Notes: a model not told the origin generated them from the sequence alone. 64,000 nt of DNA from a virus (IMGVR_UViG_3300029935_000001:201867-265866); one strand, 5' to 3'; positions 1 through 32,467 are shown, numbered from the stretch's first letter. Made by a program: numbers and translations.

Positions 1-536
1 ACATAGTCGATGAACCTGCACACCCGTTAACTATTCCAGAAGAGGTTGCAACCCAAGCGAAACCATCGTATACTGCTAATTATACTCCGGTCGAAGTAAC
101 TTTTGAGGATATACAACAGCTTGCTGGCCCGGTTAAAGACCTAGTCTCTGTTGATCTTCCTAGCGAGCCAAAACTTTCGTTAGTGCAGGAAATGGCACAT
201 GCTCAACGAGAGGAATCAGCTGCAATTGTTAACCCAACTAATCTTAGCACCACTGATTGCCAATTTGGTGTTAAATTTCCGCTAGTTGCAAACAAAGGGG
301 ATTTATTTTTGCGAGTAGACTTTCTCCCAACTAAACTGTTTAAGTTTAACGGAAGCAAGTGGATTGAAGTTAACAAACAAAACACAGACCAATACGCATA
401 CAACGATGCTTATATCGAAATGCTCATAAGTAAGATTAGTAAAGGCGAATACGAGCCAGACTGGTTGAGTGATATTGAGCGCCAACAAATCGAAACGGTA
501 CTGCAACAAGATCCAAACACAAAAGGTAATGTATGA
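1..536 (+). CDS. hypothetical protein, 5'-truncated at window edge
   Basis: The reading frame of ORF 183..536 stays open back to position 3 with no stop (IVDEPAHPLTIPEEV...), so the gene starts upstream of the window. Confidence 0.5.
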   Translation, partial: IVDEPAHPLTIPEEVATQAKPSYTANYTPVEVTFEDIQQLAGPVKDLVSVDLPSEPKLSLVQEMAHAQREESAAIVNPTNLSTTDCQFGVKFPLVANKGDLFLRVDFLPTKLFKFNGSKWIEVNKQNTDQYAYNDAYIEMLISKISKGEYEPDWLSDIERQQIETVLQQDPNTKGNV

Positions 537-1741
537 GAACTGATGAAAATTACGAACACTGTTCATTTTGCGGAAAGCACAAAGACGCAGTAAAACGCCT
601 GATCGTCGGTAACGATGTTGGGATCTGCGACGAGTGTGTGTCTATGTGCAGCGAGTTGCTCGTGGATCAGCCAGCATCAGATTTGTCATCGCCGACTGAG
701 GAGTCCGACGGTACCATTGATCCGATTGCTCTTAAGGCGTATCTTGATCAGTATGTCATTGGGCAAGATGACGCTAAGATCATGCTTAGCGTCGCGATCG
801 CCAACCATTACAAACGCATTCAGCATAGCGCCGCAGATGTCGAAATTGACAAAGCTAACGTTCTTTTACTGGGGCCTACCGGTTCTGGCAAAACCCTTCT
901 AGCCAGGTCTGTTGCCCGTTATTTGGACGTGCCTTTTGCTATTGCTGACGCCACTTCGTTGACCGAAGCTGGCTACGTTGGCGACGACGTTGAAACCCTC
1001 GTCGCTCGCTTGCTTACAGCCGCCGGCGGCGACGTAGCAAAAGCTGAACGCGGTATAATCTTTGTTGACGAAATCGACAAAATTGCTAGGAAATCGGAGT
1101 CGGCATCAATTACCCGCGACGTATCGGGCGAAGGCGTGCAACAGGCCCTGCTCAAGCTGGTCGAAGGGTCAAGCGTGCGGGTACCTACAACAGGCAACCG
1201 CAAGCACCCTAGTGGGGACATGGTTGAGGTTAACACACGCAACATTCTCTTCATTGCTGGCGGCGCGTTTGTTGGTGTCGAAAACATTGTTAAATCACGA
1301 AAAGCACCGACGTCGTGTGGGTTCACCTCTGCAGTTAAAACTGCAACTAATGTTGATGTTAGCGACGTAACCCCAGATGATTTGGTCAAGTTTGGTCTGA
1401 TACCAGAATTTGTAGGGCGCTTTCCAAACCGTGTTACACTGCAAAAGCTCACCAAGGAAACTCTGGTGCAAATCTTGTCCAGCGTAAAGAACAGCTTGTC
1501 GTCGCAATACAAAACGCTTTTTCATCTCGACGGTGTTGCGCTTGATTTGCCTGTTGATACCCTCGACGACATTGCGCAGCGCACGTTAAAATCCAACACA
1601 GGAGCCCGCGGTCTTCAGACTGAGCTTGAGCGAATTTTGCTGCCACACATGTTCAACATCAAACGGTATCAACGCGCTGGTATCAAAACTCTTACTATCA
1701 CTCCTGAGATGGTAAATAATCCAAAAGCGCTTGAAGCGTAA
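533..1741 (+). CDS. clpX: ATP-dependent Clp protease ATP-binding subunit ClpX
   Basis: N-terminal C4 zinc-binding domain (CSFCGK...CDEC); Walker A LLLGPTGSGKTLLA; Walker B IIFVDEIDKI; full-length AAA+ unfoldase organisation. Confidence 0.9.
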   Translation: MRTDENYEHCSFCGKHKDAVKRLIVGNDVGICDECVSMCSELLVDQPASDLSSPTEESDGTIDPIALKAYLDQYVIGQDDAKIMLSVAIANHYKRIQHSAADVEIDKANVLLLGPTGSGKTLLARSVARYLDVPFAIADATSLTEAGYVGDDVETLVARLLTAAGGDVAKAERGIIFVDEIDKIARKSESASITRDVSGEGVQQALLKLVEGSSVRVPTTGNRKHPSGDMVEVNTRNILFIAGGAFVGVENIVKSRKAPTSCGFTSAVKTATNVDVSDVTPDDLVKFGLIPEFVGRFPNRVTLQKLTKETLVQILSSVKNSLSSQYKTLFHLDGVALDLPVDTLDDIAQRTLKSNTGARGLQTELERILLPHMFNIKRYQRAGIKTLTITPEMVNNPKALEA

Positions 1742-1754
1742 TAAGGAGGATTGA

Positions 1755-1973
1755 GTGGTTTCTGGCAACACCGTTTATATTAACGATGGCAACGTCGAAA
1801 AAGCGTTGCGCAAATTTAAGAAAAAAGTAGCAGAAAGTAAAATTCTGCAAGAACTTCGCGAGCGCGAACATTATACCAAACCAACTACTGCGCGCAAAGT
1901 AAAAAAAACGCAAGCTCGCAGTCGCTGGCTCAAGCACGTTCGTTCACAACAACTACCTGACGCCAAATTTTAA
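1755..1973 (+). CDS. rpsU: ribosomal protein bS21 homolog
   Basis: GTG start 8 nt after AAGGAGG; basic 72-aa protein; VEKALRKFKKKV...REHYTKPTTARKVKK matches the bS21 signature. Confidence 0.8.
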   Translation: MVSGNTVYINDGNVEKALRKFKKKVAESKILQELREREHYTKPTTARKVKKTQARSRWLKHVRSQQLPDAKF

Positions 1974-2065
1974 GATTTTATAACGAGCAAGGGTGCTCGT
2001 TATAAATTAACCGTAGATGCCTAATGGGTCTACATTTTTATCTTGCTTATAAGGAGAAATTTGAA

Positions 2066-2521
2066 ATGGCAACACAAGATCTAGCTCGTTCTATTCGTAG
2101 TATCGACATCCCTGCCCTTCGCCGCTATGCCATTGGGTTTGACACACTGTTTGACGAAATGCAGCGTGCAGTGGACACAAAGGCGATAAATTATCCGCCG
2201 TATAACATCATCAAGCTGTCGGACACCGAGTATGTTGTTGAACTAGCTGTTGCTGGATTCGCCGACGACGAACTTGCCGTTGACGTTCACGAAAACCTGC
2301 TAACAGTAACAGGCACGCCCGAGGACGCAGTTTTGCCAGTGGGGGCCACTGTGCTGACCCAGGGAATTTCGCACCGGGCATTTACTCGCGAGTTTCGGCT
2401 AGCTGAGCACGTAGTAGTTGACTCGGCAGAAGTAGTTCGAGGACTACTGCGGATCAGCTTACACGTTGAGGTTCCTGAAGAAAAACGTCCGCGCCGTATT
2501 GCAATTGAGTTCAAATCGTAA
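2066..2521 (+). CDS. small heat-shock protein (Hsp20/IbpA family)
   Basis: alpha-crystallin domain motifs YPPYNIIKLSDTEYVVELAVAGF...LLTVTGT; SD AAGGAGA upstream of the ATG at 2066 (the six-frame track begins the ORF at 2024). Confidence 0.8.
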   Translation: MATQDLARSIRSIDIPALRRYAIGFDTLFDEMQRAVDTKAINYPPYNIIKLSDTEYVVELAVAGFADDELAVDVHENLLTVTGTPEDAVLPVGATVLTQGISHRAFTREFRLAEHVVVDSAEVVRGLLRISLHVEVPEEKRPRRIAIEFKS

Positions 2522-2539
2522 TACAATAATGTAAATACT

Positions 2540-2560
2540 GTAGGGGCGCGGTGCCCCTAC
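2540..2560 (+). terminator. GC-rich stem-loop downstream of hsp20 (gtaggggc/gcccctac)
   Basis: Perfect 8-bp inverted repeat; no clear U-tract. Confidence 0.35.
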
Positions 2561-2579
2561 ATACACCAAGGAAACTAGT

Positions 2580-2882
2580 ATGGCACACACTGAACTCAAA
2601 GAACAAACCAAGCTTCGGGTTGCTGAACCTCCGATGTTTAAGGTAATTTACCTCAACGACGAAGTAACTACTGTGGAATTTGTAATGGCATCGTTGATGG
2701 AGGTGTTTCATTATGCACCTAGCACCGCCGAGCAAATCACCTGGGACATCCACGAAAATGGCGCGGCTGTAGTTGCTGTGCTGCCATACGAACTGGCTGA
2801 ACAAAAAGGGTCAGAAGTCCTGGTGAGTGCGCGTTCAAAACAGTACCCGTTACAGGTAAAGCTCGAACCCGACATGAGCTAA
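2580..2882 (+). CDS. clpS: ClpS adaptor protein
   Basis: 100 aa; PPMFKVIYLNDEVTTVEFVMASLMEVFHY matches the ClpS core (PxxYKVxLxNDDxTxMEFV). Confidence 0.8.
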   Translation: MAHTELKEQTKLRVAEPPMFKVIYLNDEVTTVEFVMASLMEVFHYAPSTAEQITWDIHENGAAVVAVLPYELAEQKGSEVLVSARSKQYPLQVKLEPDMS

Positions 2883-2887
2883 CTTGC

Positions 2888-3658
2888 TCAAATAGTAAAC
2901 TGCCTCGGATAATAGCACAGCGACTGGTTATTTCCGAGGCATTGTTTTGGGTTGCTAGTAAACCGCACGCGACCGCAGTTGATCCCAACTGGATTGTAGT
3001 AATAGCCGTGAACCCACTGAACAATTTTATGTTCTGTGTCTGCGGGGCTAGCTATGGTAAAGAGTAAGCTCGAAGCTGCTGCAAGTTCGCTAGTAATCGG
3101 CGTTGGGTTAACCAGTTTAAGATCTGGAATAGCGCTAGTGACTATACAAATTTTTTGTACATCCGGGTGCCGCTGGAGCTTTTCTAAGGATGATTTTAAA
3201 TAATTGATGTCGTTAATGCTAGCCCCCATAATCAATTTAACCTCGTGCTCGCTGGCATTATGCTTTTGCATAAACAAAGATTGTACATTTATGAAATTTT
3301 CCGAATCTTCGACATTGAAATTTGACCACCCATTGGTGCCGAGAATTGCAACACCGTCGGAAATAATTACTCGATCATGTAAGTAGACTACATTGTTTAG
3401 TTCGTCGGCAATGTCTTCAAGGAACTGTTGGGTTTCGTTTATCGCGCTCCAATTTGCAGAATGTTCGAGCAAGCCGTCGATAAAAAATACGTGTTTGTAT
3501 AGCCCTGACAGGTGTTTTAGTACACTGTGAACAACAAGCAAGTCGCTAGAGATATTTCCTGCTACCACGCAAAAAAGGCTGGTTTGTTGATTTTTAAAAT
3601 CAAAGTGATCCTGGTCCGTTAAATACAAGTCAGAAATGACATCAAAAGAGTAATCCAT
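2888..3658 (-). CDS. metallophosphoesterase-fold protein, predicted catalytically inactive paralog of 26364..27215
   Basis: Block-by-block similar to the downstream calcineurin-like phosphoesterase, but metal-ligand motifs are replaced: DVH->DLY, GD->GN, GNHE->GLLE, HHAP->TSAIP, GHLH->GYYY. Confidence 0.55.
   Translation of the reverse strand: MDYSFDVISDLYLTDQDHFDFKNQQTSLFCVVAGNISSDLLVVHSVLKHLSGLYKHVFFIDGLLEHSANWSAINETQQFLEDIADELNNVVYLHDRVIISDGVAILGTNGWSNFNVEDSENFINVQSLFMQKHNASEHEVKLIMGASINDINYLKSSLEKLQRHPDVQKICIVTSAIPDLKLVNPTPITSELAAASSLLFTIASPADTEHKIVQWVHGYYYNPVGINCGRVRFTSNPKQCLGNNQSLCYYPRQFTI
2902..2950. terminator. bidirectional hairpin terminator between convergent clpS and the minus-strand gene
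   Basis: gcctcgga...tccgaggc inverted repeat followed by attgttttgg. Confidence 0.5.
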
Positions 3659-3683
3659 AATTCTATTTACAATCGAGGAACCA

Positions 3684-4013
3684 ATGTATATTATTTTTGA
3701 CGATCAAGTAACCACTGAGCTACGTGCCCATTATACGTTGCTAGAGTTAGAAACGTTTGATAGCAAGCATGGGCCCCGAACTGCGTATTGCGTTATTGAC
3801 ACCCAGCGGCTTTCAACTGAGGATTTGTTTTACTTGGACAAGTATTCTGAAGTGCATGCAGCCCTGATAAGTAACTACAAGGAAGGCCACTTTGAATTTT
3901 GCCACCAGGCCCTCGAAGTCTTGCGCGGCAAATGGGGCGGGCAAATAGACAGTTTTTATGAAGTGTTAAACAGCCGCGTGTCTGTAGCACCAAAACAGGA
4001 CAGTGTTTTTTAG
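3684..4013 (+). CDS. hypothetical protein
   Basis: ORF with SD-like GAGGAA upstream. Confidence 0.45.
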   Translation: MYIIFDDQVTTELRAHYTLLELETFDSKHGPRTAYCVIDTQRLSTEDLFYLDKYSEVHAALISNYKEGHFEFCHQALEVLRGKWGGQIDSFYEVLNSRVSVAPKQDSVF

Positions 4014-5256
4014 GAAAATAATGGATTTTATCAACGTTGCTGCATTAAACGAATCAGTCTCGCAAACCGTTACGCAAATGGTTGCCGAGCTGCTTTCGCA
4101 CGAAAACGTTCTAGCCGAGCTTAATCGCACCGCAGCCGATGTATTAAGGGCGCAAATCACCGAACAAGTAATGCAACGAGACTTCCAGCCTCTTGTTCGG
4201 GCTGCTATCGAAAAATTTGTTAGTGAAAATACGTTGCCAACTATCGGTAACATTATCGTCGAGCATCACGGGTCAGCTCCAGTTGACTCGTTTATTGCCC
4301 TAGCAGTTGAACACGAAGTAACTCGCATTGTTGCTGCGCTAGCCCAATCTCCAGAGTGGAATGCACAGATACGTCGTTTATTGTTAAACGACGTAAACCA
4401 CGTAATCTCTACTTATATAGACCGAATCGACGTCAACAGTGCAATAGCGCAAGAAATACAAAAATACCTTGCTGCTAAGCACAGTGAATCGTTACCAAAG
4501 TTTGGTATTGTTGATAATACTACTAAACCTGTGATGTCGTTGTCAGACAATGGCGTTGACACCCAAAAACTTGTTTGTTCTGAACTTACCTGCGATACTA
4601 TCGAAGTGACGGACCTGCAAGTTAATGGGCAGCTTAAATTTGATCCTTCTGCACTCAAAGACGAGCTTACGTCGCAAATTGCCTGCCAATTAGTTGAGCA
4701 AGTTACGTCAGTTGCGATTGCGCAAACTAAAGAGATTGTATCTAGCCACCGGGTACAAGCGGATCAAGTATTTACAGGACCGGTTCCGTTACTAGCTGAC
4801 GGTAAACTAAGCCGGCTGGTTACTCACTCGTCACTAGAGTCCGTTGGCGAGCTCGAGTCGTTGACTGTATTAGGCAAAACGGAACTAAACGATACTGTTG
4901 CGGTCTTAAAGAGTCGGGTCGGTATTAACACCGCAATGCCTGATTCTGCGCTTACTGTGTGGGACGAAGAGACAGCGTTGTCATTTGGCAAACACTCTTC
5001 AAACGCGTGTTATATCGGCAGCAATCGAGGCAATAAACTAGTATTAGGGATCAACCGCAAAGGCGTTGTGGAAATTACAGACACTAAAGTTACTGTTCCT
5101 GCGTTGCAAATTAATAAAAATATGGTAGGGTTTAGTAACACAACGCCAGTGCATGCCGGCACCCGCGGAGACTGGTTATGGAACACTGAAGTTACTGACG
5201 CGTCGCCGTATGCGTGGGTGTGTCTTGGCGGTTCTCGATGGAAGGCGCTAAAATGA
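4003..5256 (+). CDS. hypothetical protein, possibly fibre-like structural (Ser/Thr/Gly/Val-rich C-terminus)
   Basis: 417-aa ORF; start overlaps the previous gene; composition resembles phage fibre/receptor-binding proteins (weak). Confidence 0.45.
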   Translation: MFFRKIMDFINVAALNESVSQTVTQMVAELLSHENVLAELNRTAADVLRAQITEQVMQRDFQPLVRAAIEKFVSENTLPTIGNIIVEHHGSAPVDSFIALAVEHEVTRIVAALAQSPEWNAQIRRLLLNDVNHVISTYIDRIDVNSAIAQEIQKYLAAKHSESLPKFGIVDNTTKPVMSLSDNGVDTQKLVCSELTCDTIEVTDLQVNGQLKFDPSALKDELTSQIACQLVEQVTSVAIAQTKEIVSSHRVQADQVFTGPVPLLADGKLSRLVTHSSLESVGELESLTVLGKTELNDTVAVLKSRVGINTAMPDSALTVWDEETALSFGKHSSNACYIGSNRGNKLVLGINRKGVVEITDTKVTVPALQINKNMVGFSNTTPVHAGTRGDWLWNTEVTDASPYAWVCLGGSRWKALK

Positions 5257-5747
5257 GGATAGCTTGGATTGTAGGGCAAAGCGATCAGAATTACGATGTT
5301 GCTGCCCTCAAGGCAATCGGTCCTCTCTGGGGCACTTGGCAGTCGTGGCGGAAGTTTAAAACTGATAACGTAGTAGTAACAGACTTTAGCAAAGCAGTTG
5401 ACTTAACTGGCCGTGCCTTTCATAGTGTTTGTAACTTGTATCTCCCCGAAGACTTGTATCAAGCTGCTCAACGGCCAGCTGGCGTGCGCTTGTTTGCGCG
5501 TCCTGCAGGCGCTGGCGATTTAGCTGCATTAATGGGAGTAGTAGCAACTGTGGCCGACATTGTTCTTATTATTGGGTTGAGGCCGGGCTCACCTAACGAA
5601 GAACGTGAAGTGAAGTCAATTGTGCTAGCACACCCTAATATTCAATGGGTGAGCCTCGATGCCACTGAACCTTTTTTTGGTGGCAATGCTCCGCCAAACT
5701 GCCTAGTAGACACCACTGCTAATGTCTTGGCGATGCTTTCTGGTTGA
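5253..5747 (+). CDS. hypothetical protein
   Basis: The ATG overlaps the upstream stop (aaATGa); the gene's stop TGA lies inside the -35 TTGACT of the next promoter. Confidence 0.45.
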   Translation: MRIAWIVGQSDQNYDVAALKAIGPLWGTWQSWRKFKTDNVVVTDFSKAVDLTGRAFHSVCNLYLPEDLYQAAQRPAGVRLFARPAGAGDLAALMGVVATVADIVLIIGLRPGSPNEEREVKSIVLAHPNIQWVSLDATEPFFGGNAPPNCLVDTTANVLAMLSG

Positions 5748-5803
5748 CTAGCTGCTGCTACGGCGTTATAATAGCTACATACATTACTACTGCGGAGAAC
5801 ACA
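5744..5803 (+). promoter_or_regulatory. sigma70-type promoter (TTGACT-17-TATAAT) plus conserved leader variant
   Basis: -35 at 5744-5749, -10 at 5767-5772; leader agctacatacattactactgcggagaacacaATG. Confidence 0.6.
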
Positions 5804-6202
5804 ATGACTGCGCTCAACGAAACCGATCTTGTCACAGTTGTCGACCAAAGCTTGGGTTTCTTGCAGGCCCTTGCTGAGGTGTATGGCTCCGAGCGCGCAC
5901 AAGAAGCGTGGGCTAAGATAAGCGAGGCCCTCGGGCACGACGTTAGAGACGCAGTGTTCTTAGCTATGCTCGCCGGCGATAACGGTTCGGCTCGTGTGAC
6001 CTTCAAAATCACAAACCAAATCGTTAGCCATCGAGTGGCTGCTATTCGAGCGATTCGCGAGGCTGCATCGCTGGGCCTTAAAGAGGCCAAAGATCTTACG
6101 GATGCGGCAATGATGCGCGCCACTGTTGTGACGTGTAAAAATCGCCAATCAGCAAAAGGCCTGCGGCAAGCGTTGCGAGATCTTGGCATGGAGGCACAGT
6201 GA
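5804..6202 (+). CDS. protein with a ribosomal protein bL12 (L7/L12) C-terminal-domain-like region
   Basis: The C-terminal 70 aa read RVTFKITNQIVSHRVAAIRAIREAASLGLKEAKDL..., closely matching the bL12 CTD (EFDVIL...KIAVIKAVRxxTGLGLKEAKDL...); the N-terminal half is unrelated. Confidence 0.55.
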   Translation: MTALNETDLVTVVDQSLGFLQALAEVYGSERAQEAWAKISEALGHDVRDAVFLAMLAGDNGSARVTFKITNQIVSHRVAAIRAIREAASLGLKEAKDLTDAAMMRATVVTCKNRQSAKGLRQALRDLGMEAQ

Positions 6203-6286
6203 TGATTGACTAGGGACTGGTTGCGTATGGAGTGATTTTGTTTGCGGTAATTTGTGTTGGTGGGTCCATTTCGACAGGAGCGAAAG

Positions 6287-6511
6287 ATGACTAAGCGTTT
6301 CGAAAAGGTACAGGTAGTTGAGCACAAGATCGATGCCAACGTGGCGTGCGTTGAGCTAGTAGCTGCGCAGCGAGCAGACACTTCATTGGTAGTGGGCAAG
6401 TTCCTGGTTCCAGTTACTGATGATTTTGACGAGTTTGTTGCTACGGTGCGTGAGCGTGCTCGCGAAACTGCGGGTGTTGAGTTTGATCACTTTCGTGTAG
6501 AGTTTCAGTAA
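6287..6511 (+). CDS. hypothetical protein
   Basis: SD GGAG 7 nt before the ATG; followed by a hairpin. Confidence 0.45.
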   Translation: MTKRFEKVQVVEHKIDANVACVELVAAQRADTSLVVGKFLVPVTDDFDEFVATVRERARETAGVEFDHFRVEFQ

Positions 6512-6548
6512 CTTTAGCGGTCAACGCAAAAACTGGCGGTTTTACAAG

Positions 6549-6590
6549 GATTCGGGCATTGTAAGTCTTTGATTTATAAGGGCCCGAATC
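6549..6590 (+). terminator. stem-loop (gattcgggc...gcccgaatc) followed by a T-rich run
   Basis: 9-bp perfect inverted repeat with a 24-nt loop, then ttgttt. Confidence 0.3.
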
Positions 6591-6705
6591 TTGTTTAAAA
6601 CGCTAAAAACTGCAAAGTGCGTGCTTACCAGCAAAGTGTCGAGACTTTTGCTGTAAATGTGCTCGATCAGAAATTACATAAACTGTGCTTAAAAAGGAAG
6701 CAATA

Positions 6706-7119
6706 ATGCCCTGGATCACTAATGTGCCGCTGCGCTGGATCGCCGAAGGTCACTACCCTAACCCGGGCTCAAACAGTATGCTGATCCAAATCGTGGACCC
6801 GGCGATGGAGTTTCCTGTACCAGCGACGCCGTTTCGGGAGATTCATCAGTTTGAGTTTCTCGACCTCGAGGACTCCGACGACTTTGCTGAAGAGTTCAAG
6901 ATCACAGACGAGCAGGCTGCCGAGCTGGTCGCGCTCCTGCAGCACGCGCTCAACCAAGGCATGAACGTTATTGTCCACTGTGTCGCTGGAGTGTGTCGCA
7001 GCGGGGCAGTATGCGAGGTTGGCGTGATGATGGGGTTTGATGATGCTGGCGCGTACCGGGCTCCTAACCTCATGGTCAAACGTCTCATGATGAGGTGTCT
7101 TGGCTGGACCTACGATTAG
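6706..7119 (+). CDS. Cys-based protein phosphatase (dual-specificity/tyrosine phosphatase fold)
   Basis: CX5R P-loop VHCVAGVCRSGAV; SD AAAAAGGAAG upstream. Confidence 0.65.
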   Translation: MPWITNVPLRWIAEGHYPNPGSNSMLIQIVDPAMEFPVPATPFREIHQFEFLDLEDSDDFAEEFKITDEQAAELVALLQHALNQGMNVIVHCVAGVCRSGAVCEVGVMMGFDDAGAYRAPNLMVKRLMMRCLGWTYD

Positions 7120-7120
7120 G

Positions 7121-7179
7121 TTGACAGCACCTGCTCAGATCCGTATAATACGAACATAGACAACGCGCCGGAGAGCAAA
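7121..7179 (+). promoter_or_regulatory. sigma70-type promoter TTGACA-17-TATAAT
   Basis: -35 at 7121-7126, -10 at 7144-7149; leader cgccggagagcaaaATG. Confidence 0.6.
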
Positions 7180-7362
7180 ATGGGTTATCGAGTGTTTGAA
7201 GCCAACGACGGGTTCGGCGCGCGCAAAGGCCTCGAAGGCCCGTTCCGTTACCCCAGCGGTCGCGTTGTATATTACGATCCCAAAGAGGGCAAGTATTATG
7301 ACCCCAAAACGGACTGGTACTTAAGCCATCAAGAGGCGTTAGAACTTTATGCATTAACCTGA
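7180..7362 (+). CDS. hypothetical small protein
   Basis: Promoter-driven 60-aa ORF. Confidence 0.45.
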
Positions 7363-7928
7363 GCACGTTGAGCTGCTCGATACGCGAGCATCTTCTCGCG
7401 TATCTTTTGCTTATGTTCTTCGGTTTGTTTGTGCCCTTTCTTTTTAGGCTTGCCAAGATGCGCTGCTGCTATCTTAGCTTTAGTCTCTTCAGAATGTTTA
7501 TCAGGAGAACCATCTAGACGAGCAGGTTTTTTGCGTCCTTTGAACTTTTCGCTCATCTTCTGTTTCCATTCGTCACTATGTTCAATTTTCTGTTTAGCTC
7601 GTGCAGCACGAATCTTTGCCTTAGCTTCTTCTGTATGGGTTCTACCAAACATATAGTTGAGCTCTCCAGGGAATGATCCCCCATCCCCGCCGTCGGTTTT
7701 GTTATAGAGAATACCTGTACCAATATCCTTTCTGCCATACCAACGGATATACCTGCGCTCAAGAGCCAATGCACCAACTTCGGTTAATCCTGTCTCAAGA
7801 AACACTATTCTCGAACGATCGCGAGGAACAGTAACATTGTGTCGGCCAAACACGCGGTTGCCTTGGCCTTTTCCGATATAGTACGGGGTTCCGTCTTTAC
7901 GGAGATAAGCATATGTATAGTAGTTCAT
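7347..7928 (-). CDS. GIY-YIG homing endonuclease with NUMOD3 DNA-binding repeats
   Basis: N-terminal [20 protein letters not shown]...R...E (GIY-YIG); three NUMOD3-like repeats ([15 protein letters not shown]; [15 protein letters not shown]; [15 protein letters not shown]); minus strand against the genome polarity. Confidence 0.8.
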
Positions 7929-8035
7929 ATTATTATTTATCCGCGCACTGATTTTTACCTCTCAGACGACGAGGTTCGCGCACTCCAGGATTCCATCTAC
8001 AATGTGCTGCGCACGTAAAAAGATTTAGATTTAGG

Positions 8036-8097
8036 TTGCCCAGAGCAGCAGAATACGGTATAATAGCTACATACAGTAACGCAACGGAGCATACAAA
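8036..8097 (+). promoter_or_regulatory. conserved promoter-leader cassette (TTGCCC-17-TATAAT-AGCTACATACAGTAACGCAACGGAGCAtacaaa)
   Basis: Near-identical to more than 13 other copies. Confidence 0.7.
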
Positions 8098-8271
8098 ATG
8101 TTTGAAACTTTCCTCACTATTCTTGCTGTGCTGGTGTTCCTGTTCTGCACGCTTGTGCTGCTTGCGGTAGGCCGCAAGAACCCGTCCAAGATTGATGGGG
8201 CTAAAGTCCTGAAACTTTTGCTGGTGTGGGCTGTCTCTGGTGCGTGGTTGGTTGCTGCTGTTATTTCCTAA
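8098..8271 (+). CDS. small hydrophobic membrane protein (57 aa)
   Basis: ATG sits directly at the end of the conserved leader; two predicted TM helices; below the ORF-track length cut-off. Confidence 0.5.
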   Translation: MFETFLTILAVLVFLFCTLVLLAVGRKNPSKIDGAKVLKLLLVWAVSGAWLVAAVIS

Positions 8272-8283
8272 CTGTCCAAAAAG

Positions 8284-8478
8284 GTGAATGCTATGACTAT
8301 CTCCCAAGAGCGCATGGTTCAAATGATTCGCATGGACGTTCGTGAATGCTACTCCGAGCAAGGTCGTGCAGGCACTGCAACCGAGTACGGAGTTGAAGCG
8401 TTTGTTGGCGCGAGCGAATCGCTTGAACAGTTTGTCGATCGTTGTGTGGCCGCCGAGCTCAACCGCTGCTACGCCTGA
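8284..8478 (+). CDS. hypothetical protein
   Basis: SD AAAAAGGTGA upstream of the ATG. Confidence 0.45.
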   Translation: MNAMTISQERMVQMIRMDVRECYSEQGRAGTATEYGVEAFVGASESLEQFVDRCVAAELNRCYA

Positions 8479-8479
8479 C

Positions 8480-8800
8480 ATGGACTACCGAGACTCGCCA
8501 ACAAAAACTCAAATCGGACTGGTAGTTGAGTGTGTAGGGCCCGATTCGAGCAAGACCTCGGTCATTTATTCCGTTGCTGGATTAGGTGTAATTTGTCCCG
8601 ACTTGCTGCTAACTTGCGGGTCCGCTTTTCGAATGTCAGTGTATCTCAGCGCACTGATTGACGGCACCGATCGATTGGCCGATGCGTTTGGACGCTACGC
8701 TATTAGCGTTTGGATTTCTGGGGAACAATACTACGACGCCGAGTCAATCGCAGCCGCTCTTGTTGCTGCTCACTATAACGCACAAAATAAGACTATATGA
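8480..8800 (+). CDS. hypothetical protein
   Basis: ATG overlaps the upstream stop (tgacATGg); in frame with track ORF 8342..8800. Confidence 0.4.
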   Translation: MDYRDSPTKTQIGLVVECVGPDSSKTSVIYSVAGLGVICPDLLLTCGSAFRMSVYLSALIDGTDRLADAFGRYAISVWISGEQYYDAESIAAALVAAHYNAQNKTI

Positions 8801-9395: not shown

Positions 9396-10388
9396 GTGAT
9401 ACCAACAAGAGCGCAATACTTTTTTACTGAGCGTGGATTTTTTAGAAAAAACGTCCTCAAAGAAGAAAAGTTCAGTCAACGCTATCCAGCTGTTTATGCA
9501 GAAATTAACAAAATTACTTCAACCTCGTTGCCGTGGCGAGAACGAGTGTATCTATATATACATGATGCACAAGAACCCCCACTCTGCCACTGCGGATGCG
9601 GAGAGCGGTGTGCTTTTTCGAACTGCCAAGACTCGAGTCGATTTACATATTTAAAGTTTTATTCAACTAAGTGCAAAGCTCGTGCTTATGGCGGTGTTGG
9701 AAATCCGTTTTTTGGTAAAAATCACTCAGATGAGACAAAAGAAGCAATCAGAGTTAAAAAGCAGGGCAAAACATATTCGCCCGAAGTAAACGCTAAAAAA
9801 GTGCGTCGCGGTGCTCAAAACGGAATGTACCAGCGTTGTAACTATGACGTTTGGCTCGAAAAATACGGCCCAGAAATTGCTTTACAAAAGCAGTTAGCAG
9901 CAAACGCTAAAAAAGTGCGTCGCGGTGCTCAAAACGGAATGTATGGTAAGTCGCCATCAAAAAAAGCTGGCAATTCTGTTAAGTGTTGGTACAAAGGTTA
10001 CTTTTGCCGCAGTTTATCCGAGCTAAGTTTTATAATAAACTACTGCGAGCGATTTAGGTTATTGTTTGAAACTGCCGAAACTACAAAATACAAAGTTGTT
10101 ATAGGTCCTAATAAAACGTACAGACCGGATTTTTTAGTAAACAACAAATTTATTGTTGAGATCAAACCAAAAGGGCTACAGAAGGCCCATGCTGACAAGT
10201 TTAGCATAGCCAAAGCAGAGTTTCTAAAGCAAGGGCTAACGTTTAAAGTCATTGACCCTATTAAAAAACTAAGTTATAATGACATTTTTGCGCTAATGCA
10301 AACGGGTGCCGTAGAAATAATGGCTGCTACGCATAGCAAAACTTATAACAACTTTATGAAAAGGTATCAAAAATGGGCAAAGCGGTAA
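9396..10388 (+). CDS. free-standing homing endonuclease (Zn-finger + NUMOD3 repeats + C-terminal PD-(D/E)xK-like nuclease)
   Basis: GTG start after AGGAGAG; CHCGCG zinc motif; NUMOD3-like GKNHSDETKEAIRVKKQGK; duplicated AKKVRRGAQNGMY module; C-terminal RPDF...VEIKPK motif; inserted between the pnk remnant and the intact pnk. Confidence 0.7.
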   Translation: MIPTRAQYFFTERGFFRKNVLKEEKFSQRYPAVYAEINKITSTSLPWRERVYLYIHDAQEPPLCHCGCGERCAFSNCQDSSRFTYLKFYSTKCKARAYGGVGNPFFGKNHSDETKEAIRVKKQGKTYSPEVNAKKVRRGAQNGMYQRCNYDVWLEKYGPEIALQKQLAANAKKVRRGAQNGMYGKSPSKKAGNSVKCWYKGYFCRSLSELSFIINYCERFRLLFETAETTKYKVVIGPNKTYRPDFLVNNKFIVEIKPKGLQKAHADKFSIAKAEFLKQGLTFKVIDPIKKLSYNDIFALMQTGAVEIMAATHSKTYNNFMKRYQKWAKR

Positions 10389-11281
10389 TCTGTGTCGGCG
10401 TTTCGGCTTCTGGAAAAAGCACCTGGGCGCGCAATTTCATCCACGACCGTACTACGAATGCCGGCGAGCAGTGGGTTGACATCAATCGCGACTGGGAACG
10501 GCGCTGTATTTTGGTCGAAAAGTCGCAAGGTCAGATTGACCGGCTCGTTTGGCGCCACTGGAAGTGGAAGTGGGAGGACGAAGTCACCCAACGTTGTGAA
10601 GCTCGTCTTGCCGAAGCGGCTGCTGCCCAGAAAAGTGTTGTGATCTCGGATACCAACCTGAATCGAGACCGCCGGACGGCTTTGAAGCACAAGCTCGAAG
10701 CACTTGGGTACGATGTTGAATACAAGTTTTTCTCGGTTACGTTCGAGGAAGCGTGCCGGCGCGATGCTGAACGCGAAAACGGTGTTGGTTACTCGGTGAT
10801 CGCTAAGCAGTTTGAGCAGTGGAATGCCGAGTTTCATGCTAAGCACATCCTGCAAGCTGGTTTGCCTGAATGCGTGATCGTTGACATCGACGGCACCATG
10901 GCTCACATGAAGGGGCGCGGCCCGTTTGATTGGGCGCGAGTGGGCGAAGATACAGTCGACCCGGTTGTGGATCGAATGGTCCAAGCCCTTCAAGACCAAG
11001 GATTTAAGATCGTTTTCCTGTCGGGGCGCGATGGCTGCTGCGAAGCTGAAACTCGCGAATGGCTCCGCAACAAGACCAGCGTCGGCGAGTTCGAGCTGTT
11101 TATGCGCACGGCAGGCGATTCGCGACGCGACGACATTGTCAAGCAAGAATTGCTTGCTGAGCATGTCGAAGGGCGTTACAATGTTTTTTGCGTGTTCGAC
11201 GATCGCCCCCAAATGATTCGCAAGTGGCATGCTATGGGTCTCAAGGTAATGGCTGTTAGCAACCCGTACCTCGAGTTTTAA
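10373..11281 (+). CDS. pnk: polynucleotide 5'-kinase/3'-phosphatase (T4 Pnk-like)
   Basis: N-terminal P-loop GVSASGKST; C-terminal HAD phosphatase motif VIVDIDGTM (DxDGT) plus downstream Asp residues; same domain order as T4 PseT. Confidence 0.8.
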   Translation: MGKAVICVGVSASGKSTWARNFIHDRTTNAGEQWVDINRDWERRCILVEKSQGQIDRLVWRHWKWKWEDEVTQRCEARLAEAAAAQKSVVISDTNLNRDRRTALKHKLEALGYDVEYKFFSVTFEEACRRDAERENGVGYSVIAKQFEQWNAEFHAKHILQAGLPECVIVDIDGTMAHMKGRGPFDWARVGEDTVDPVVDRMVQALQDQGFKIVFLSGRDGCCEAETREWLRNKTSVGEFELFMRTAGDSRRDDIVKQELLAEHVEGRYNVFCVFDDRPQMIRKWHAMGLKVMAVSNPYLEF

Positions 11282-11282
11282 C

Positions 11283-11570
11283 ATGTGGTTTGAAGTATTA
11301 GATGAGCGTGTTGGCCCGTATGTAGTAGTTAACGGACACGGATTTGTCTACTACATACGGGCCGAACACTACTATCATCACCTGCTGTCAGGTGATACAT
11401 TCTATTCGCTAACCCTGCTGCAGATTGCTGACTTCGCGATTGATCTACAAACTAATGAGATCAAAAAGTGTCGAGTACCGTGTCACAAGTTAGTCGAATC
11501 TTATATTTTAAGGAATCACCAAGATGATGTTCATCCCGAAAGAAAAACTGAAGAGCGGTGCGTACTATGA
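11283..11570 (+). CDS. hypothetical protein
   Basis: ORF immediately after pnk. Confidence 0.4.
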   Translation: MWFEVLDERVGPYVVVNGHGFVYYIRAEHYYHHLLSGDTFYSLTLLQIADFAIDLQTNEIKKCRVPCHKLVESYILRNHQDDVHPERKTEERCVL

Positions 11571-13984: not shown

Positions 13985-15082
13985 ATGCGTAAGCTTGCTA
14001 CCATTCGTAAGATCGCCGAGATCAAGCCCATCGAGGGCGCCGACGCCATTGAACATTACCGCGTACTTGGGTGGTGGGTCGTTGACAAAAAAGGTGCCCA
14101 TCAAGTCGGCGACCTTGTCATTTACCTCGAGATCGATTCCTGGGCGCCCAATGAGCTGGCTCCGTTCCTGAGCAAGGGCAAAGAGCCGCGCGAATACAAC
14201 GGCGTTAAGGGCGAGCGCCTCAAAACTGTTAAGCTTCGCGGCGCTATCTCGCAAGGGCTGCTGCTGCCCGTTAAAACCGGAATCGGCGGCTACCCGTTTG
14301 TTGAGGGCTCCGCCGGCGAGCACACTGTTGTTCACGAAGGCGACGATGTCTCCGAACTGCTCGGCATTCAAAAATACGAGCCGCCCGTTCCGGCTCAGCT
14401 GCGCGGCAAGATTGCCGGCACGTTCCCGAGCTGGCTGCGAAAAACTGACCAGGAACGGATCCAATCTTGTTTTGCGGAGATTGAGCCTCTGCTCAGCGGC
14501 CTTTGGGTGATTGAAGAAAAGCTCGATGGGTCGTCTATGACTGTTGGCTACCGCAAGGGTGATTTTATCCTCGACAAGGATGGCCAGCCCATCCCTGAAG
14601 AAACTGTGGTTTGCTCGCGTAATCTGTCGCTCAAGCTCGACGATGACGCTAACTCGTTTGTGCGTGTGGCCCGAGAAACTGGCGTGCTTGACGCGCTGAA
14701 GGCGTATGGCCGTAACCTGGGCATTTCAGGCGAGCTGTGCGGCGAGGGCATCCAGGGTAACAAGTATAACCTCAAGGGCCAGCGCTGGTTTGTTTTCGAC
14801 ATTCTCGACGTTGATCGGGCCGAGTACGTTAGTTACGAAGAGCGCCAGCTGATCATCAATGATCTCGTTGCGCTCGGCGCCCAACTTGATCAAACTCCAC
14901 TGATTGCTGAGGGCGTTACGCTTGAGGGCATGACCGTCGACGGCTTGCTCCGAGCTGCTGAAGCGAAGAGTGCGCTGAATATTCAAGCCGAGCGTGAAGG
15001 ACTGGTATATAAGAGTGTTGAGCGGCCTGATGTGTCGTTCAAGGCTATTAGCAATCGGTGGTTGCTTAAAACTGGGGAATAA
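13985..15082 (+). CDS. ATP-dependent RNA ligase with N-terminal OB/tRNA-binding-like domain (Rnl5/DraRnl-like)
   Basis: N-terminal Myf/EMAP-like OB segment (RKIAEIKPIEGADAIEHYRVLGWWVV); nucleotidyltransferase motif I KLDGSS, motif IV EGLVYK, motif V FKAIS. Confidence 0.75.
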   Translation: MRKLATIRKIAEIKPIEGADAIEHYRVLGWWVVDKKGAHQVGDLVIYLEIDSWAPNELAPFLSKGKEPREYNGVKGERLKTVKLRGAISQGLLLPVKTGIGGYPFVEGSAGEHTVVHEGDDVSELLGIQKYEPPVPAQLRGKIAGTFPSWLRKTDQERIQSCFAEIEPLLSGLWVIEEKLDGSSMTVGYRKGDFILDKDGQPIPEETVVCSRNLSLKLDDDANSFVRVARETGVLDALKAYGRNLGISGELCGEGIQGNKYNLKGQRWFVFDILDVDRAEYVSYEERQLIINDLVALGAQLDQTPLIAEGVTLEGMTVDGLLRAAEAKSALNIQAEREGLVYKSVERPDVSFKAISNRWLLKTGE

Positions 15083-25321: not shown

Positions 25322-25918
25322 ATGACCACCCTTATCCCCATCGTTGTTGAACAAACTGCCCGCGGCGAACGCTCCTACGACATCTTTAGTCGTATGCTCA
25401 AGGACCGTATTGTTTTCCTCAACGGCCCTGTTCGCACTGAGATGTCGCATTTGATTGTAGCGCAGCTTCTTCTACTTGAAGCCGAAGATCCTGAGCGAGA
25501 CATTGTTATGTACATTAACTCGCCAGGCGGCGAAGTCACTGCAGGCCTGGCAATCCTTGACACTATGCGTTTCATCAAGCCTGACGTAGTTACGGTAGTA
25601 ATGGGGCAGGCGGCGTCAATGGGCTCACTGCTTGCATCCTCGGGCACTAAAGGAAAGCGCTATCTGCTGCCCAATGCGCGGCACCTCATCCACCAGCCAC
25701 TCGGCGGCGCCTCGGGCCAAGCCTCGGACATCGAGATCCATGCCAAGGAGATTATCCGCCTCAAGCGCGAGCTCACTGAAATTTACGTAGGCAACACAGG
25801 CAAGACATTTGAAACACTCGAGCGCGACATGGATCGTGACAACATTATGACGGCTGCTGAATCCGTGGCATATGGCCTCGCTGACAAAATCATTACTAAC
25901 CGACTTGACGGGCTATGA
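25322..25918 (+). CDS. clpP: ATP-dependent Clp protease proteolytic subunit ClpP
   Basis: 198 aa; [14 protein letters not shown]; active-site Ser in QAASMGS; His in LIHQP; canonical Ser-His-Asp triad spacing. Confidence 0.9.
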
Positions 25919-28503: not shown

Positions 28504-28960
28504 CGCATCAACTCTGTATCGCAAAGAAGGTCGAAAGTATGTTCCAGTTCAGCTTGTAGAAGACGTGTATCACCGATTCCCGCACGGGGCGCATTTGGTA
28601 GTCGCCGATTTGCCCCATTGTACAATCTTCCGCTATAATGTAGAAAACTTGGATGTAGCTGTGCTAGCTGCCTTAGTTCGTTGCGAGAATCGGCTTGTTG
28701 AAGAGATTTGCGTCGAATCCGCATTGCGCCCTTCACGCCCTCCAATTACACCGGAGCAACACCGGGCTTGGAAAAACTTCATTGCTGTAATGGGCGACAG
28801 CGGGCGCACAGTAACCCACAATTCTGCCCAGCAAATAGCAGCTTCTGCGTTACAAAAGCTCAGCAAAGACATTGAGCAGACTTTGGCTGATCCACGCGTT
28901 CGGGAAGCATACGAAAAATTTAAACTTGTAGTAACAATGCTCGACAACGAGGAAAAATAA
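28490..28960 (+). CDS. hypothetical protein
   Basis: Internal ATG of track ORF 28436..28960 chosen to minimise overlap. Confidence 0.4.
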   Translation: MTSPNASTLYRKEGRKYVPVQLVEDVYHRFPHGAHLVVADLPHCTIFRYNVENLDVAVLAALVRCENRLVEEICVESALRPSRPPITPEQHRAWKNFIAVMGDSGRTVTHNSAQQIAASALQKLSKDIEQTLADPRVREAYEKFKLVVTMLDNEEK

Positions 28961-29601
28961 TGCTCTTTGATCTTGACGAACTTTCGTGGACTCGTCCGGT
29001 CCCAGTCAGGCCATCAATTAAAGTGATCCCAGGGCAATATCCGTTGGTGCCCGAAGCTGACCAAGGTGCAGTGACGCTAATTGGACCAAATCTCGAGCAC
29101 GGGCCTTGGATTGCCGGCGGAGCCCCCTTACATTGGTATCGCGGGGAGTCGATTGGTCTACATCACGACATTGACGTGTGGTTTAAAGACTTGGAACAGT
29201 TTTCGGCGGCAGTGTTACGCCTCCGCGATTATGGGGACGTGGTGTGTGAATCACCTAATGCACAGACTTTCCGATATTATCACCCTGACAGTGGCACCTG
29301 CACAATCCAGTTAATCAAGGTAAACTTTTTTGCTAGCGCACAAGAAGTTATTGATCACTTTGACTTCAGTGTGTGCCAGCTAGTTACCGATGGCAAAGTT
29401 ATGCTCTATGGCAAACACACGCGCGAGGACATCGAATCCAAGCGCCTTCGAGTAGTAAAGGTTCGAGCTGATTGCGCTAAACGCATTGTGAAATACCTGT
29501 CGTATGGTTACAAAATGGCGCTTACTGACATTAAAGAGCACTTTGCTCTAACTGAAAATTGGGAGTTCACCCACGAGGATTACGAGGCAACAAAGCTATG
29601 A
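28960..29601 (+). CDS. possible minimal nucleotidyltransferase-fold protein
   Basis: RGESIGLHHDIDVWF resembles a G[GS]...DxD pol-beta NTase motif, with a later DHFDFS acidic patch; weak. Confidence 0.3.
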   Translation: MLFDLDELSWTRPVPVRPSIKVIPGQYPLVPEADQGAVTLIGPNLEHGPWIAGGAPLHWYRGESIGLHHDIDVWFKDLEQFSAAVLRLRDYGDVVCESPNAQTFRYYHPDSGTCTIQLIKVNFFASAQEVIDHFDFSVCQLVTDGKVMLYGKHTREDIESKRLRVVKVRADCAKRIVKYLSYGYKMALTDIKEHFALTENWEFTHEDYEATKL

Positions 29602-31552: not shown

Positions 31553-32467
31553 ATGAATTTCAAATCTGTACCTGCCGTAATCTTCGACTTTCCGCCCCTT
31601 GCGGCAATTCTCGTAACTCTCTCTACACTGTTTCTTGCTGCGTGCGGCGACCGAGTTGAAGTGCCCCCAGCACATGTAGCCAAGATCATGACCAAGGATG
31701 GCTACAAGGCCGACACCATCGGCACGTCAAAATTTCGTCTTGAATGGTGCTGGGCATACTGCGACAAGCTGGTTCTGCTTGACGCGTCTGACCAAGCAGT
31801 GTCTGAAAAGATGGAACTTTTCATGCCGCAAGACAAGTTGAACATGGCGTTTGACTTGCGTCTAACGCTAGTGGTCAATCCCGACAAGTACGAAGAACTT
31901 TTTGCGCGGGTGCCGCCAGTTGAACAAAACGGCATCGAGTACATTGCCTGGGCAAAAGCATATCAAACGTATGCGCAGCAAATCGTTCGAGCCGAGGCAC
32001 GTGAATTCCTGAGCGGTTTTACGATTGCTGAAATCGCCAGCTCGCGCGAAGCGATTAACGCACAGCTTAGCACACGACTGACTGAGAGCATCAACAAGCG
32101 CACCCCGTTCCAAGTACGGTACGTTGGGCTAGCTGACATTCAGTACCCAGCAATTATTGTCGAAGCGCAAGAAAATGCAGCGCAGCGACGTGAGCAGATC
32201 CAACAAGAAGAAGCGCAGCTCGAAATTAGCAAAGTGGCACTTGAGCGACAACTGCAAGAGCAACAACTTCAGCGCCGAATTGACGTTGAACGCGCTCAAG
32301 CAGAAGCAGAAGTTGCGCGCATTCAATCGCAATCGCTTACTCCGCAATACATGAAGTATCGCGAACTTCAGATCCTAGAGAAGCTCGCAACAAGCGACAA
32401 CAAGGTGTTTGTGCCTAGCACGATGCTAGATTCGATCGCCGGTCAAGTGCAACTTGGTCGTCAGTAA
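31553..32467 (+). CDS. SPFH/band-7 (stomatin/prohibitin/HflKC-like) lipoprotein
   Basis: Lipobox LAAC after the signal peptide; central SPFH-like region; long C-terminal coiled-coil Q/E/A/R heptads (EQIQQEEAQLEISKVALERQLQEQQLQRR...). Confidence 0.5.
   Translation: MNFKSVPAVIFDFPPLAAILVTLSTLFLAACGDRVEVPPAHVAKIMTKDGYKADTIGTSKFRLEWCWAYCDKLVLLDASDQAVSEKMELFMPQDKLNMAFDLRLTLVVNPDKYEELFARVPPVEQNGIEYIAWAKAYQTYAQQIVRAEAREFLSGFTIAEIASSREAINAQLSTRLTESINKRTPFQVRYVGLADIQYPAIIVEAQENAAQRREQIQQEEAQLEISKVALERQLQEQQLQRRIDVERAQAEAEVARIQSQSLTPQYMKYRELQILEKLATSDNKVFVPSTMLDSIAGQVQLGRQ

Follow-up and report, generated by a model that had tools for sequence, protein, structure and literature searches.

The 64,000-nucleotide (nt) stretch of DNA analysed here (IMGVR_UViG_3300029935_000001:201867-265866; hereafter the window) opens with a block of four genes, all on the plus strand, that encode the unfoldase ClpX, ribosomal protein bS21, a small heat-shock protein (sHsp) of the Hsp20 type and the Clp adaptor ClpS. 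The original prediction for this DNA had described these four genes as one unit and had named five more elsewhere in the window, for ClpP, a GroES-like co-chaperonin, IF-1, a protein with a bL12 C-terminal domain (CTD) and a ppGpp hydrolase. Profile searches found all nine genes at the expected coordinates, with strong matches far above chance (Table 1). ClpX, bS21 and IF-1 scored above NCBIfam equivalog cut-offs, whereas ClpS, the sHsp and the Cpn10-like and bL12-like proteins are divergent and passed Pfam thresholds only. Bit scores are quoted against Pfam gathering cut-offs and NCBIfam equivalog or subfamily cut-offs, and PHROG matches as E-values; about 10 kb upstream of the window was also inspected, giving about 74 kb in total.

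Table 1. Features of the window, with positions counted from its first nucleotide; the four-gene block is listed first, then its neighbours and the genes elsewhere.
Feature	Position	Strand	Evidence or remarks
ClpX, AAA+ unfoldase	533-1741	+	zf-C4_ClpX and AAA_2 domains; NCBIfam ClpX equivalogs
Ribosomal protein bS21	1755-1973	+	TIGR00030 58.8 bits versus 28.95; Pfam 63.3 bits
Two hairpins after the bS21 stop	1977-2033	+	perfect 13-bp stem at 1977-2006; second stem at 2013-2033, then ATTTTTAT
IbpA-type small heat-shock protein (Hsp20)	2066-2521 (reading frame opens at 2024)	+	PF00011 54.8 bits versus 20.8
Hsp20-ClpS spacer	2522-2579 (58 nt)	+	TACAAT, GTAAATAC, hairpin, AGGAA Shine-Dalgarno sequence
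ClpS adaptor	2580-2882	+	PF02617 85.6 bits versus 23; AlphaFold model
3' part of a 483-amino-acid gene starting upstream of the window	1-536	+	gene call on Logan contig L001, ending at 536
Metallophosphoesterase-like gene, conserved island neighbour	2888-3658	-	phrog_1649, E = 2.7e-11; in 56 related loci
109-amino-acid gene, conserved island neighbour	3684-4013	+	in 39 related loci
bL12-CTD protein	5804-6202	+	PF00542 33.4 bits versus 25.9; three-helix N-terminal domain fused to bL12 C-terminal domain
ClpP peptidase	25322-25918	+	PF00574 267 bits; Ser-His-Asp triad, no propeptide
Translation initiation factor IF-1	38785-39003	+	TIGR00008 96.3 bits versus 61.15
Cpn10-like co-chaperonin (Cpn10/T4 gp31 type), divergent	45471-45848	+	PF00166 25.1 bits versus 21.1; phrog_931, E = 3.8e-14
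Small HD-domain protein, putative alarmone hydrolase, Aph1-like	55203-55697	+	HD_4 24.8 bits, under the cut-off of 27.2; 7SMG, E = 8.5e-16

ClpX matched both of its Pfam domains (zf-C4_ClpX, PF06689, 51.9 bits versus 27; AAA_2, 113.7 bits) and two NCBIfam models (NF003745, 524.9 bits versus 359; TIGR00382, 498.8 bits versus 370.75). Residue-level alignment to solved structures placed its four zinc-finger cysteines on those of E. coli ClpX, and the Walker A (GPTGSGKT) and Walker B (FVDEIDK) motifs, the GYVG pore loop, the RKH loop and the GARGL sensor-2 motif are all kept. Its N-domain is the usual zinc finger only, with no Clp_N domain. The ClpP-docking loop reads CGF, not IGF (residues 261-263, window 1313-1321), and this cysteine is unique among 81 viral ClpX proteins, which otherwise carry I, M, V or L at the position, and S in one case. 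The bS21 gene starts with GTG 13 nt past the ClpX stop, behind an AGGAGG Shine-Dalgarno (SD) sequence, and its product aligns with E. coli S21 over the full length, without the N-terminal extension found on many huge-phage S21 proteins (PMC7162821). Two hairpins follow, the second trailed by a T-run, and probably mark the end of a ClpX-bS21 transcription unit. For the sHsp, the likely start is the ATG at 2066 behind an AAGGAG SD sequence, which gives a protein of 151 amino acids with an alpha-crystallin domain and a C-terminal I-x-I motif, present as RRIAIEF; its best NCBIfam match is IbpA, although it stays below the IbpA equivalog cut-off (115.9 bits versus 212).

To map the block in other phages, we scanned IMG/VR with ClpX (147 relatives, of which the best 80 were mapped, with 50-67% ClpX identity and contigs of up to 367 kb) and with S21 (the best 80 of 368 relatives). 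S21 stood directly after ClpX in about 70 of the 80 ClpX-seeded loci, usually with a 4-nt overlap or 1 nt apart, which suggests translational coupling, and Hsp20 and ClpS followed in about 64. Seeding with S21 gave the same arrangement, with ClpX immediately upstream in 67 of the 80 loci and Hsp20 and ClpS downstream in 74. A more distant subclade, with about 50% ClpX identity, also keeps the ClpX-S21 pair, and in 16 ClpX-seeded loci ClpP lies 2-5 kb beyond ClpS. As a control, we inspected 80 bacterial clpX loci: clpP adjoins clpX in 77, and S21, Hsp20 or ClpS was found within 3 kb of clpX in none. The arrangement ClpX-bS21-(DnaK, GroES-GroEL or none)-Hsp20-ClpS is a conserved island across hundreds of contigs, not a chance cluster, and the block in the window is its minimal form, with four genes within 2.35 kb.

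What lies between S21 and Hsp20 varies. In the window there is a 92-nt spacer with the two hairpins; a full DnaK/Hsp70 (about 625 amino acids) occupies this slot in about 17-20 relatives, GroES plus GroEL in 4-5 and an 86-amino-acid open reading frame (ORF) in others; neither DnaK nor a GroES-GroEL pair is present in the 64-kb window. Examples of slot insertions are L020:11765-13636 and L029:11624-13552, with about 25 other related loci.

The spacer between Hsp20 and ClpS is also conserved. In the window, a -10-like TACAAT lies immediately past the Hsp20 stop, with a -35-like TTGCAA 17 nt upstream, at 2499, and a 9-bp GC-rich hairpin (2539-2561) and the AGGAA SD sequence precede ClpS. Among 50 unique spacers of relatives, TAYAAT opens 32 and a TAAATA motif occurs in 39. 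A hairpin of at least 8 consecutive pairs is present in 43 of these 50, the stems come in 44 distinct sequences, and 48 fold more stably than shuffled controls at z < -2 (median z = -4.2); the conserved spacers finish with AAGGA. From phage to phage the stem changes in sequence but retains its fold. The spacer may serve clpS as its own promoter with a 5' stem-loop, or act as a terminator or attenuator behind hsp20. The combination TAYAAT-GTAAATAC-hairpin was not found elsewhere in the window; it occurs once in that form and is no genome-wide repeat. Counts of promoter-like and terminator-like sequences in window 1-7200 were not above shuffled controls. A perfect sigma-70 consensus (TTGACA-17-TATAAT) lies at 7121-7149 on the plus strand.

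The island is also present in two cultured jumbo phages, Agrobacterium phage Atu_ph07 (Polybotosvirus) and Sinorhizobium phage Phosso, where it had gone unrecognised. In Phosso, ClpX-IF3, S21 and sHsp-thymidine kinase-ClpS are arranged in this order on one strand over about 17 kb. In Atu_ph07, ClpX-IF3 is followed on the same strand by an S21-like protein of 84 amino acids, two hypothetical genes, the sHsp, thymidine kinase and ClpS. The 84-amino-acid protein (AUZ95452.1, annotated 'hypothetical protein', MF403008 489096-489347 = L087:21097-21348, minus strand) reads as bS21, and the island straddles the arbitrary origin of the GenBank record. Both phages thus share with the window ClpX, bS21, sHsp, ClpS and ClpP, in the same order and strand, with identities to the window proteins of about 50% for ClpX, about 42% for Hsp20 and about 33-34% for ClpS. 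They differ from it in that their islands are stretched to about 5 kb (Atu_ph07) and about 17 kb (Phosso), in the IF-3 gene after ClpX and in the thymidine kinase gene between sHsp and ClpS. As the hosts of both phages are grown in the laboratory, the function of the island is experimentally tractable.

Several components have been reported before. Atu_ph07 is known to encode ClpX, ClpA, ClpB, ClpP, ClpS and DnaJ (PMC6102473), with a seven-member Clp set plus Hsp20 in all (PMC6102473, PMC7824862); phage ClpS, ClpP, ClpX and Hsp20 have been discussed (PMC7824862), and S21, L7/L12 and IF1 are known from huge phages (PMC7162821, PMC6375957). We found ClpS also in PA5oct-like and fHe-Yen9-04 phages. 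The original prediction had called the combination unusual for a virus, and rare it is; however, it has a precedent in Atu_ph07 (PMC6102473), and each gene type is known in large phages. bS21 is the commonest viral ribosomal protein, carried by large phages, and bL12-domain fusions are known as well (Mizuno 2019; Al-Shayeb 2020; Chen 2022). Viral ribosomal-protein genes have been described in variable genomic contexts (PMC6375957) or in a structural-gene context (PMC9723584), whereas the bS21 gene of the window occupies a fixed place directly behind ClpX in a chaperone and protease island. Phage-encoded S21 has been known since 2019, and the Clp components of phages tend to be recorded as dispersed auxiliary genes; here, S21 has a fixed position in such an island across a large jumbo-phage lineage. 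No description of the island was found in the literature searched, which is absence of evidence only, and it is apparently undescribed so far.

Whether the genes are host-derived or belong to a phage lineage had been left to phylogeny by the original prediction, and for ClpX, the protein that our tree covers, the result is a virus-only clade. In a neighbour-joining (NJ) analysis of 161 ClpX sequences, the viral proteins, comprising both uncultivated subclades, Atu_ph07 and Phosso, split from the closest sampled bacterial ClpX with a bootstrap of 100/100 (100 replicates on a 56-taxon subsample; NJ is a distance method, and long branches may have attracted each other). In raw identity, the ClpX of Atu_ph07 is slightly nearer to bacterial proteins (55%) than to that of the window (51%); the shared gene order gives independent support for common descent of the viral ClpX proteins. 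Because bacterial clpX loci differ, viral ClpX is separate and the GC content of the four-gene block is the same as that of the rest of the window, the island appears to be vertically inherited within a large jumbo-phage clade rather than captured as a host operon. In the bacterial clpP-clpX operon and in Bacillus phage G (gp257-gp258), clpP lies directly upstream of clpX; in the window, S21 follows clpX, clpP is 23.6 kb away and ClpX belongs to the virus-only clade. The ClpX of phage G shares 67% identity with its clostridial counterpart and was apparently captured separately and recently. The nearest bacterial matches to the ClpX of the window are 48-55% identical and spread across taxa, so that no host or donor emerges, and the homologue lists of ClpS and ClpP consist almost entirely of metagenome proteins. 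A weak hint of a possibly proteobacterial host comes from the similarity of ClpS to Caulobacter and E. coli ClpS and from the strong SD sequences of the genes.

The AlphaFold model of ClpS has a core with a predicted local distance difference test (pLDDT) score of about 90 and superimposes on Caulobacter ClpS (3gq0) with a template-modelling (TM) score of 0.97 and a root-mean-square deviation (rmsd) of 0.7 Å; the rmsd to ClpS chains from ClpS-ClpA N-domain complexes is 0.9 Å. Structurally, the protein is nearer to proteobacterial than to actinobacterial or plant ClpS. About 17 residues at the N terminus are disordered (low pLDDT at residues 1-17) and lead into a Glu-Pro-Pro junction (E16-P17-P18) that is invariant in 38 sequences. 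The pocket for N-degrons, which the original prediction had singled out for inspection, is largely but not fully conserved: N34, D35, T38, V43, H66 and L99 (E. coli numbering) are invariant in 65 phage ClpS proteins, but in the window Glu replaces D36, Val the gatekeeper M40 and Thr M62, and across the clade the D36 position is Asn, Asp or Glu, with Asn in 37 of 65. All 65 phage sequences have E79 and E82, and 64 have K84; these three are predicted contacts to the ClpA N-domain, after the 2002 ClpS-ClpA N-domain crystal structures. Overall, the protein shares with E. coli and Caulobacter ClpS the fold, N34, D35, T38, H66, E79/E82/K84, the N-terminal extension and the Pro-Pro junction. Unlike in their ClpS-ClpAP systems, its gene adjoins those for ClpX, S21 and sHsp, and not clpA.

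These features bear on the partner of ClpS. The original prediction had described a complete ClpXP protease with its adaptor ClpS. This does not hold: ClpS serves ClpA, or ClpC in some phyla, on whose N-domain it docks, pushing its disordered N-terminal extension into the ClpA pore (PMC9663308), and phage ClpX has no Clp_N domain. The Pro-Pro junction shields ClpS from degradation, and ClpA engages both junction and extension; ClpS thereby turns ClpAP to N-degron substrates while inhibiting the degradation of ssrA-tagged ones (PMC9663308). We found no Clp_N-domain gene in the window and the 10 kb upstream (about 74 kb). We also scanned IMG/VR with Atu_ph07 ClpA, which gave 36 loci, and with a 19-sequence ClpA profile, which gave at least 80. 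No ClpA on island-bearing contigs, including those of 300-367 kb, was seen by eye among the matches listed, although this does not prove absence, and the flanks of the ClpA loci have no lineage-specific genes in common with the window. The simplest interpretation is that ClpS acts on the ClpAP of the host; alternatively, its partner is possibly an undetected phage-encoded ClpA, as in Atu_ph07. A use of host ClpAP by phage ClpS has been proposed earlier in general terms (PMC7824862). ClpS thus points to control of host ClpAP, and not to a complete ClpXP-ClpS machine. In 20 viral-contig loci (L093, L094, L096, L115, L131, L172 and others), an IF-1 homologue lies about 1-2.5 kb upstream of ClpA. 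This neighbourhood on the ClpA-seeded contigs echoes clpA-infA of E. coli, and some of these contigs may be cellular fragments.

The ClpP of the window is a cellular-type protein and not a prohead protease. Its identity to E. coli ClpP, estimated by eye in the alignment, is about 63%, and its GQAASMG, IHQPLGG and DRD motifs align with E. coli S97, H122 and D171, in keeping with the canonical ClpP named in the original prediction. It scored above the cut-off of the NF001368 subfamily (304.7 bits versus 249) and, being slightly divergent, just below that of the TIGR00493 equivalog (289 versus 308.6), while it stayed below the cut-off of the related head-maturation model NF045542 (92.8 bits versus 120). 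ClpX and ClpP of the window share catalytic and docking motifs with the bacterial pair, except for CGF in place of IGF. Both look functional, which makes a phage ClpXP plausible.

Overall, we suggest a model in which the block is a minimal proteostasis-plus-bS21 island through which the phage would control both Clp proteases, the chaperone capacity and the composition of ribosomes; we put the probability of this reading at roughly 0.6. With their [I/M/V/C]-G-F loops, hexamers of the phage ClpX would attach to a tetradecamer of ClpP from either the phage (25322) or the host, and the resulting ClpXP would bring substrate choice under phage control. Translated in step with ClpX, bS21 would sit in host 30S subunits, at the site where bS21 is exchangeable, and support SD-led initiation on phage mRNAs; the genes of the block themselves have strong SD sequences. 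The IbpA-type sHsp would hold proteins that are unfolded or aggregate while virion proteins are made in bulk, and relatives add DnaK or GroES-GroEL at this place. ClpS would bind the N-domain of a ClpA-type unfoldase, most likely that of the host, and feed its N-terminal extension into the pore, so that ClpAP would favour N-degron substrates and aggregated proteins over those that it takes directly, such as ssrA-tagged ones. The wider idea in the original prediction, that the phage re-tools host proteolysis, ribosomes and the stringent response, is a plausible inference. For bS21 there is a published precedent, as a pelagiphage bS21 enters E. coli 70S ribosomes (PMC6375957).

Several observations weigh against this model. 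With Cys for Ile in the IGF loop of ClpX, docking on ClpP is predicted only. The differences in the ClpS pocket at D36, M40 and M62 mean that its specificity may be altered, and ClpS is below all nine NCBIfam ClpS equivalog cut-offs (best 69.1 bits versus 149; cut-offs 86-159). The related phage Atu_ph07 encodes its own ClpA. In the one published test, in-vitro translation fell to about 5% with viral bS21 (PMC6375957), so that its effect could be inhibitory rather than selective. Finally, ClpX is lost in 10 of the 80 S21-seeded loci, which keep S21-Hsp20-ClpS and the upstream gene, and ClpX and bS21 are therefore not obligatorily linked. In these ten loci an unrelated 119-amino-acid ORF replaces ClpX (L320:3617-3976 and nine others).

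The persistence of S21-Hsp20-ClpS in variants without ClpX also fits an alternative in which ClpS is chiefly an inhibitor or decoy of host ClpAP that protects phage proteins or blocks a ClpAP-dependent host response, with the other genes acting independently and clustered by shared early expression. Also in its favour, the predicted ClpA-contact residues are invariant while D36 of the pocket drifts to Asn in more than half of the sequences. However, most pocket residues are invariant in the 65 proteins (N34, D35, T38, V43, H66 and L99), which would be needless for a pure blocker of the N-domain, and we regard this alternative as unlikely, though it deserves to be kept in mind.

Somewhat more doubtful is an assembly toolkit instead of a host takeover, in which the ClpX/ClpP pair would mainly serve virion morphogenesis, by removing scaffold or propeptides or by unfolding proteins and moving them into the head, while capsid proteins would be folded by the chaperones. 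The gene of 483 amino acids coupled upstream of ClpX, with a 4-nt overlap between its stop and the ClpX start, has only a weak match, to a family of virion structural proteins (phrog_11591). ClpP also matches PHROGs of head-maturation proteases, the Cpn10-like gene falls in a head-morphogenesis family (phrog_931), and phage ClpA/ClpX have been proposed to aid virion assembly (PMC7824862). Set against this are the cellular character of ClpP, above the cellular subfamily cut-off, below that of the head-maturation model and close in sequence to E. coli ClpP, the lack of an obvious assembly role for ClpS or bS21, and the position of the island, which does not adjoin capsid or portal genes in the window. 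The upstream gene has an N-terminal membrane or coiled-coil region, and its C terminus is found upstream of ClpX in 63 loci. We considered it as a candidate Clp adaptor and rejected it, as it has no family match beyond the weak virion-protein PHROG.

The tight and widespread pairing of ClpX and bS21 permits a further, quite improbable scenario in which the two form a functional unit: ClpX, with ClpP, would remodel host ribosomes by pulling out or degrading their bS21 or a factor bound to them, and so make room for the phage bS21 that is translated along with ClpX, while the chaperones and ClpS would handle the proteotoxic load. If true, this would be a protease-assisted subunit swap that reprograms translation initiation.

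The window is part of an uncultivated jumbo phage of at least 323 kb, distantly related to the Atu_ph07/Phosso lineage, and not of a bacterium. It is about 95% coding, with short ORFs of which 108 of 146 (greedy calls) lie on one strand, mostly plus, and most have no Pfam match. Scans for tRNAs and Rfam families found no tRNA, no rRNA and no Rfam family in the whole window. Phage-type genes include a T4-type clamp loader (phrog_168, 3e-75), homing endonucleases and an RNA ligase with PNKP, and a DNA ligase, a ribonucleotide reductase, a PAAR protein and a cell-wall hydrolase were found just upstream. A protein of 924 amino acids (39037-41811, plus strand) has homologues only in Atu_ph07 and Phosso. 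The relatives are IMG/VR viral contigs of 150-367 kb; one contig of 323,407 bp carries ClpS and ClpP proteins identical to those of the window, and several sequencing runs, independent of one another, contain the same phage. Megablast with positions 1-8000 of the window found no match among GenBank phages, from which we conclude that there is no close cultured relative; the 64-kb window itself is without capsid and terminase genes. The viral origin assumed by the original prediction is upheld by this absence of rRNA and tRNA, the phage gene content, the viral-contig relatives and the gene order shared with Atu_ph07 and Phosso. A bacterial or symbiont chromosome with ordinary housekeeping genes, as the cellular-type genes with ClpX, S21 and IF-1 above equivalog cut-offs might suggest, is effectively refuted by the missing tRNA, rRNA and Rfam families, the short, one-strand-biased and Pfam-poor ORFs at such a coding density, the homing-endonuclease, T4-type clamp-loader, RNA ligase and PNKP, PAAR and cell-wall-hydrolase genes, a clpX without the adjoining clpP of 77 of 80 bacterial loci, relatives that are viral contigs with a gene order as in cultured jumbo phages, and the 924-amino-acid protein known only from Atu_ph07 and Phosso. 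This protein contains many T-T-F-D-like repeats and matched no Pfam or PHROG family; its homologues in the two phages are annotated as serine or S8 peptidase.

Of the remaining genes named in the original prediction, IF-1 at 38785 is well supported (Table 1), and three others need qualification. The bL12-like protein has a genuine CTD, the model of which matches 1ctf with a TM score of 0.67 and 35% identity, but it is below the TIGR00855 cut-off (25.1 bits versus 84.4), and no match to the L12 N-terminal domain for dimerisation and L10 binding was found in it. As only the CTD is present, incorporation into the ribosomal stalk is doubtful, and the protein may instead bind translational GTPases off the ribosome. 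Its three-helix N-terminal domain had no convincing domain-specific structural match in the PDB, and the protein is present only in seven close relatives. An 11/12 match to the sigma-70 consensus lies at 5744-5772 on the plus strand, about 30 nt upstream of its gene. The GroES-like co-chaperonin passes the Cpn10 Pfam cut-off and belongs to a T4 gp31-type PHROG, but is marginal as a GroES, with 24 bits versus 109 for GroES equivalogs and only E = 0.04 against the true GroES of relatives. The claim of a SpoT-type ppGpp hydrolase is not supported: HD_4 is below its cut-off, and the closest solved relative is Aph1 (7SMG), a (p)ppApp hydrolase (PMC10083569), with SpoT/RelA hydrolase domains far weaker (E = 5e-6 or worse). 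Like Aph1, the protein is a single HD domain of about 150-165 amino acids, aligned over residues 6-156. Genes for MazG (42185-42589), a DksA/TraR zinc-finger protein (49858-50088) and the HD protein (55203-55697) all lie within 14 kb, and a nucleotide-alarmone theme, perhaps extending to the RNA-polymerase channel, is plausible from these three genes.

Genes of the homing-endonuclease type lie at 7347-8481 (minus strand) and 9396-10388 (plus strand), with NUMOD3 and with a TnsA-like nuclease plus NUMOD3. Those at 7347-8481 are missing from the near-identical strain L282, which indicates a mobile-element polymorphism. PNKP (10373-11281, plus strand) is near an RNA ligase (13985-15082, plus strand), and the two are likely a tRNA or RNA repair pair; opposite the PNKP gene, the other strand has a 305-amino-acid ORF (10367-11284) that mirrors it and is probably not a real gene. 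A precomputed Pfam label, Gad2, on 28960-29601 was not reproduced by our own Pfam scan and was dropped. About 375 nt before IF-1, with one ORF between, a 63-amino-acid protein resembling chlamydial-type histone H1 (Hc1, 46.5 bits) is encoded at 38219-38410 on the plus strand. Further genes encode an SPFH/Band_7 protein (31553-32467), a YAcAr SLOG-family protein (47449-47835) and a dual-specificity-phosphatase-like protein (6685-7119).

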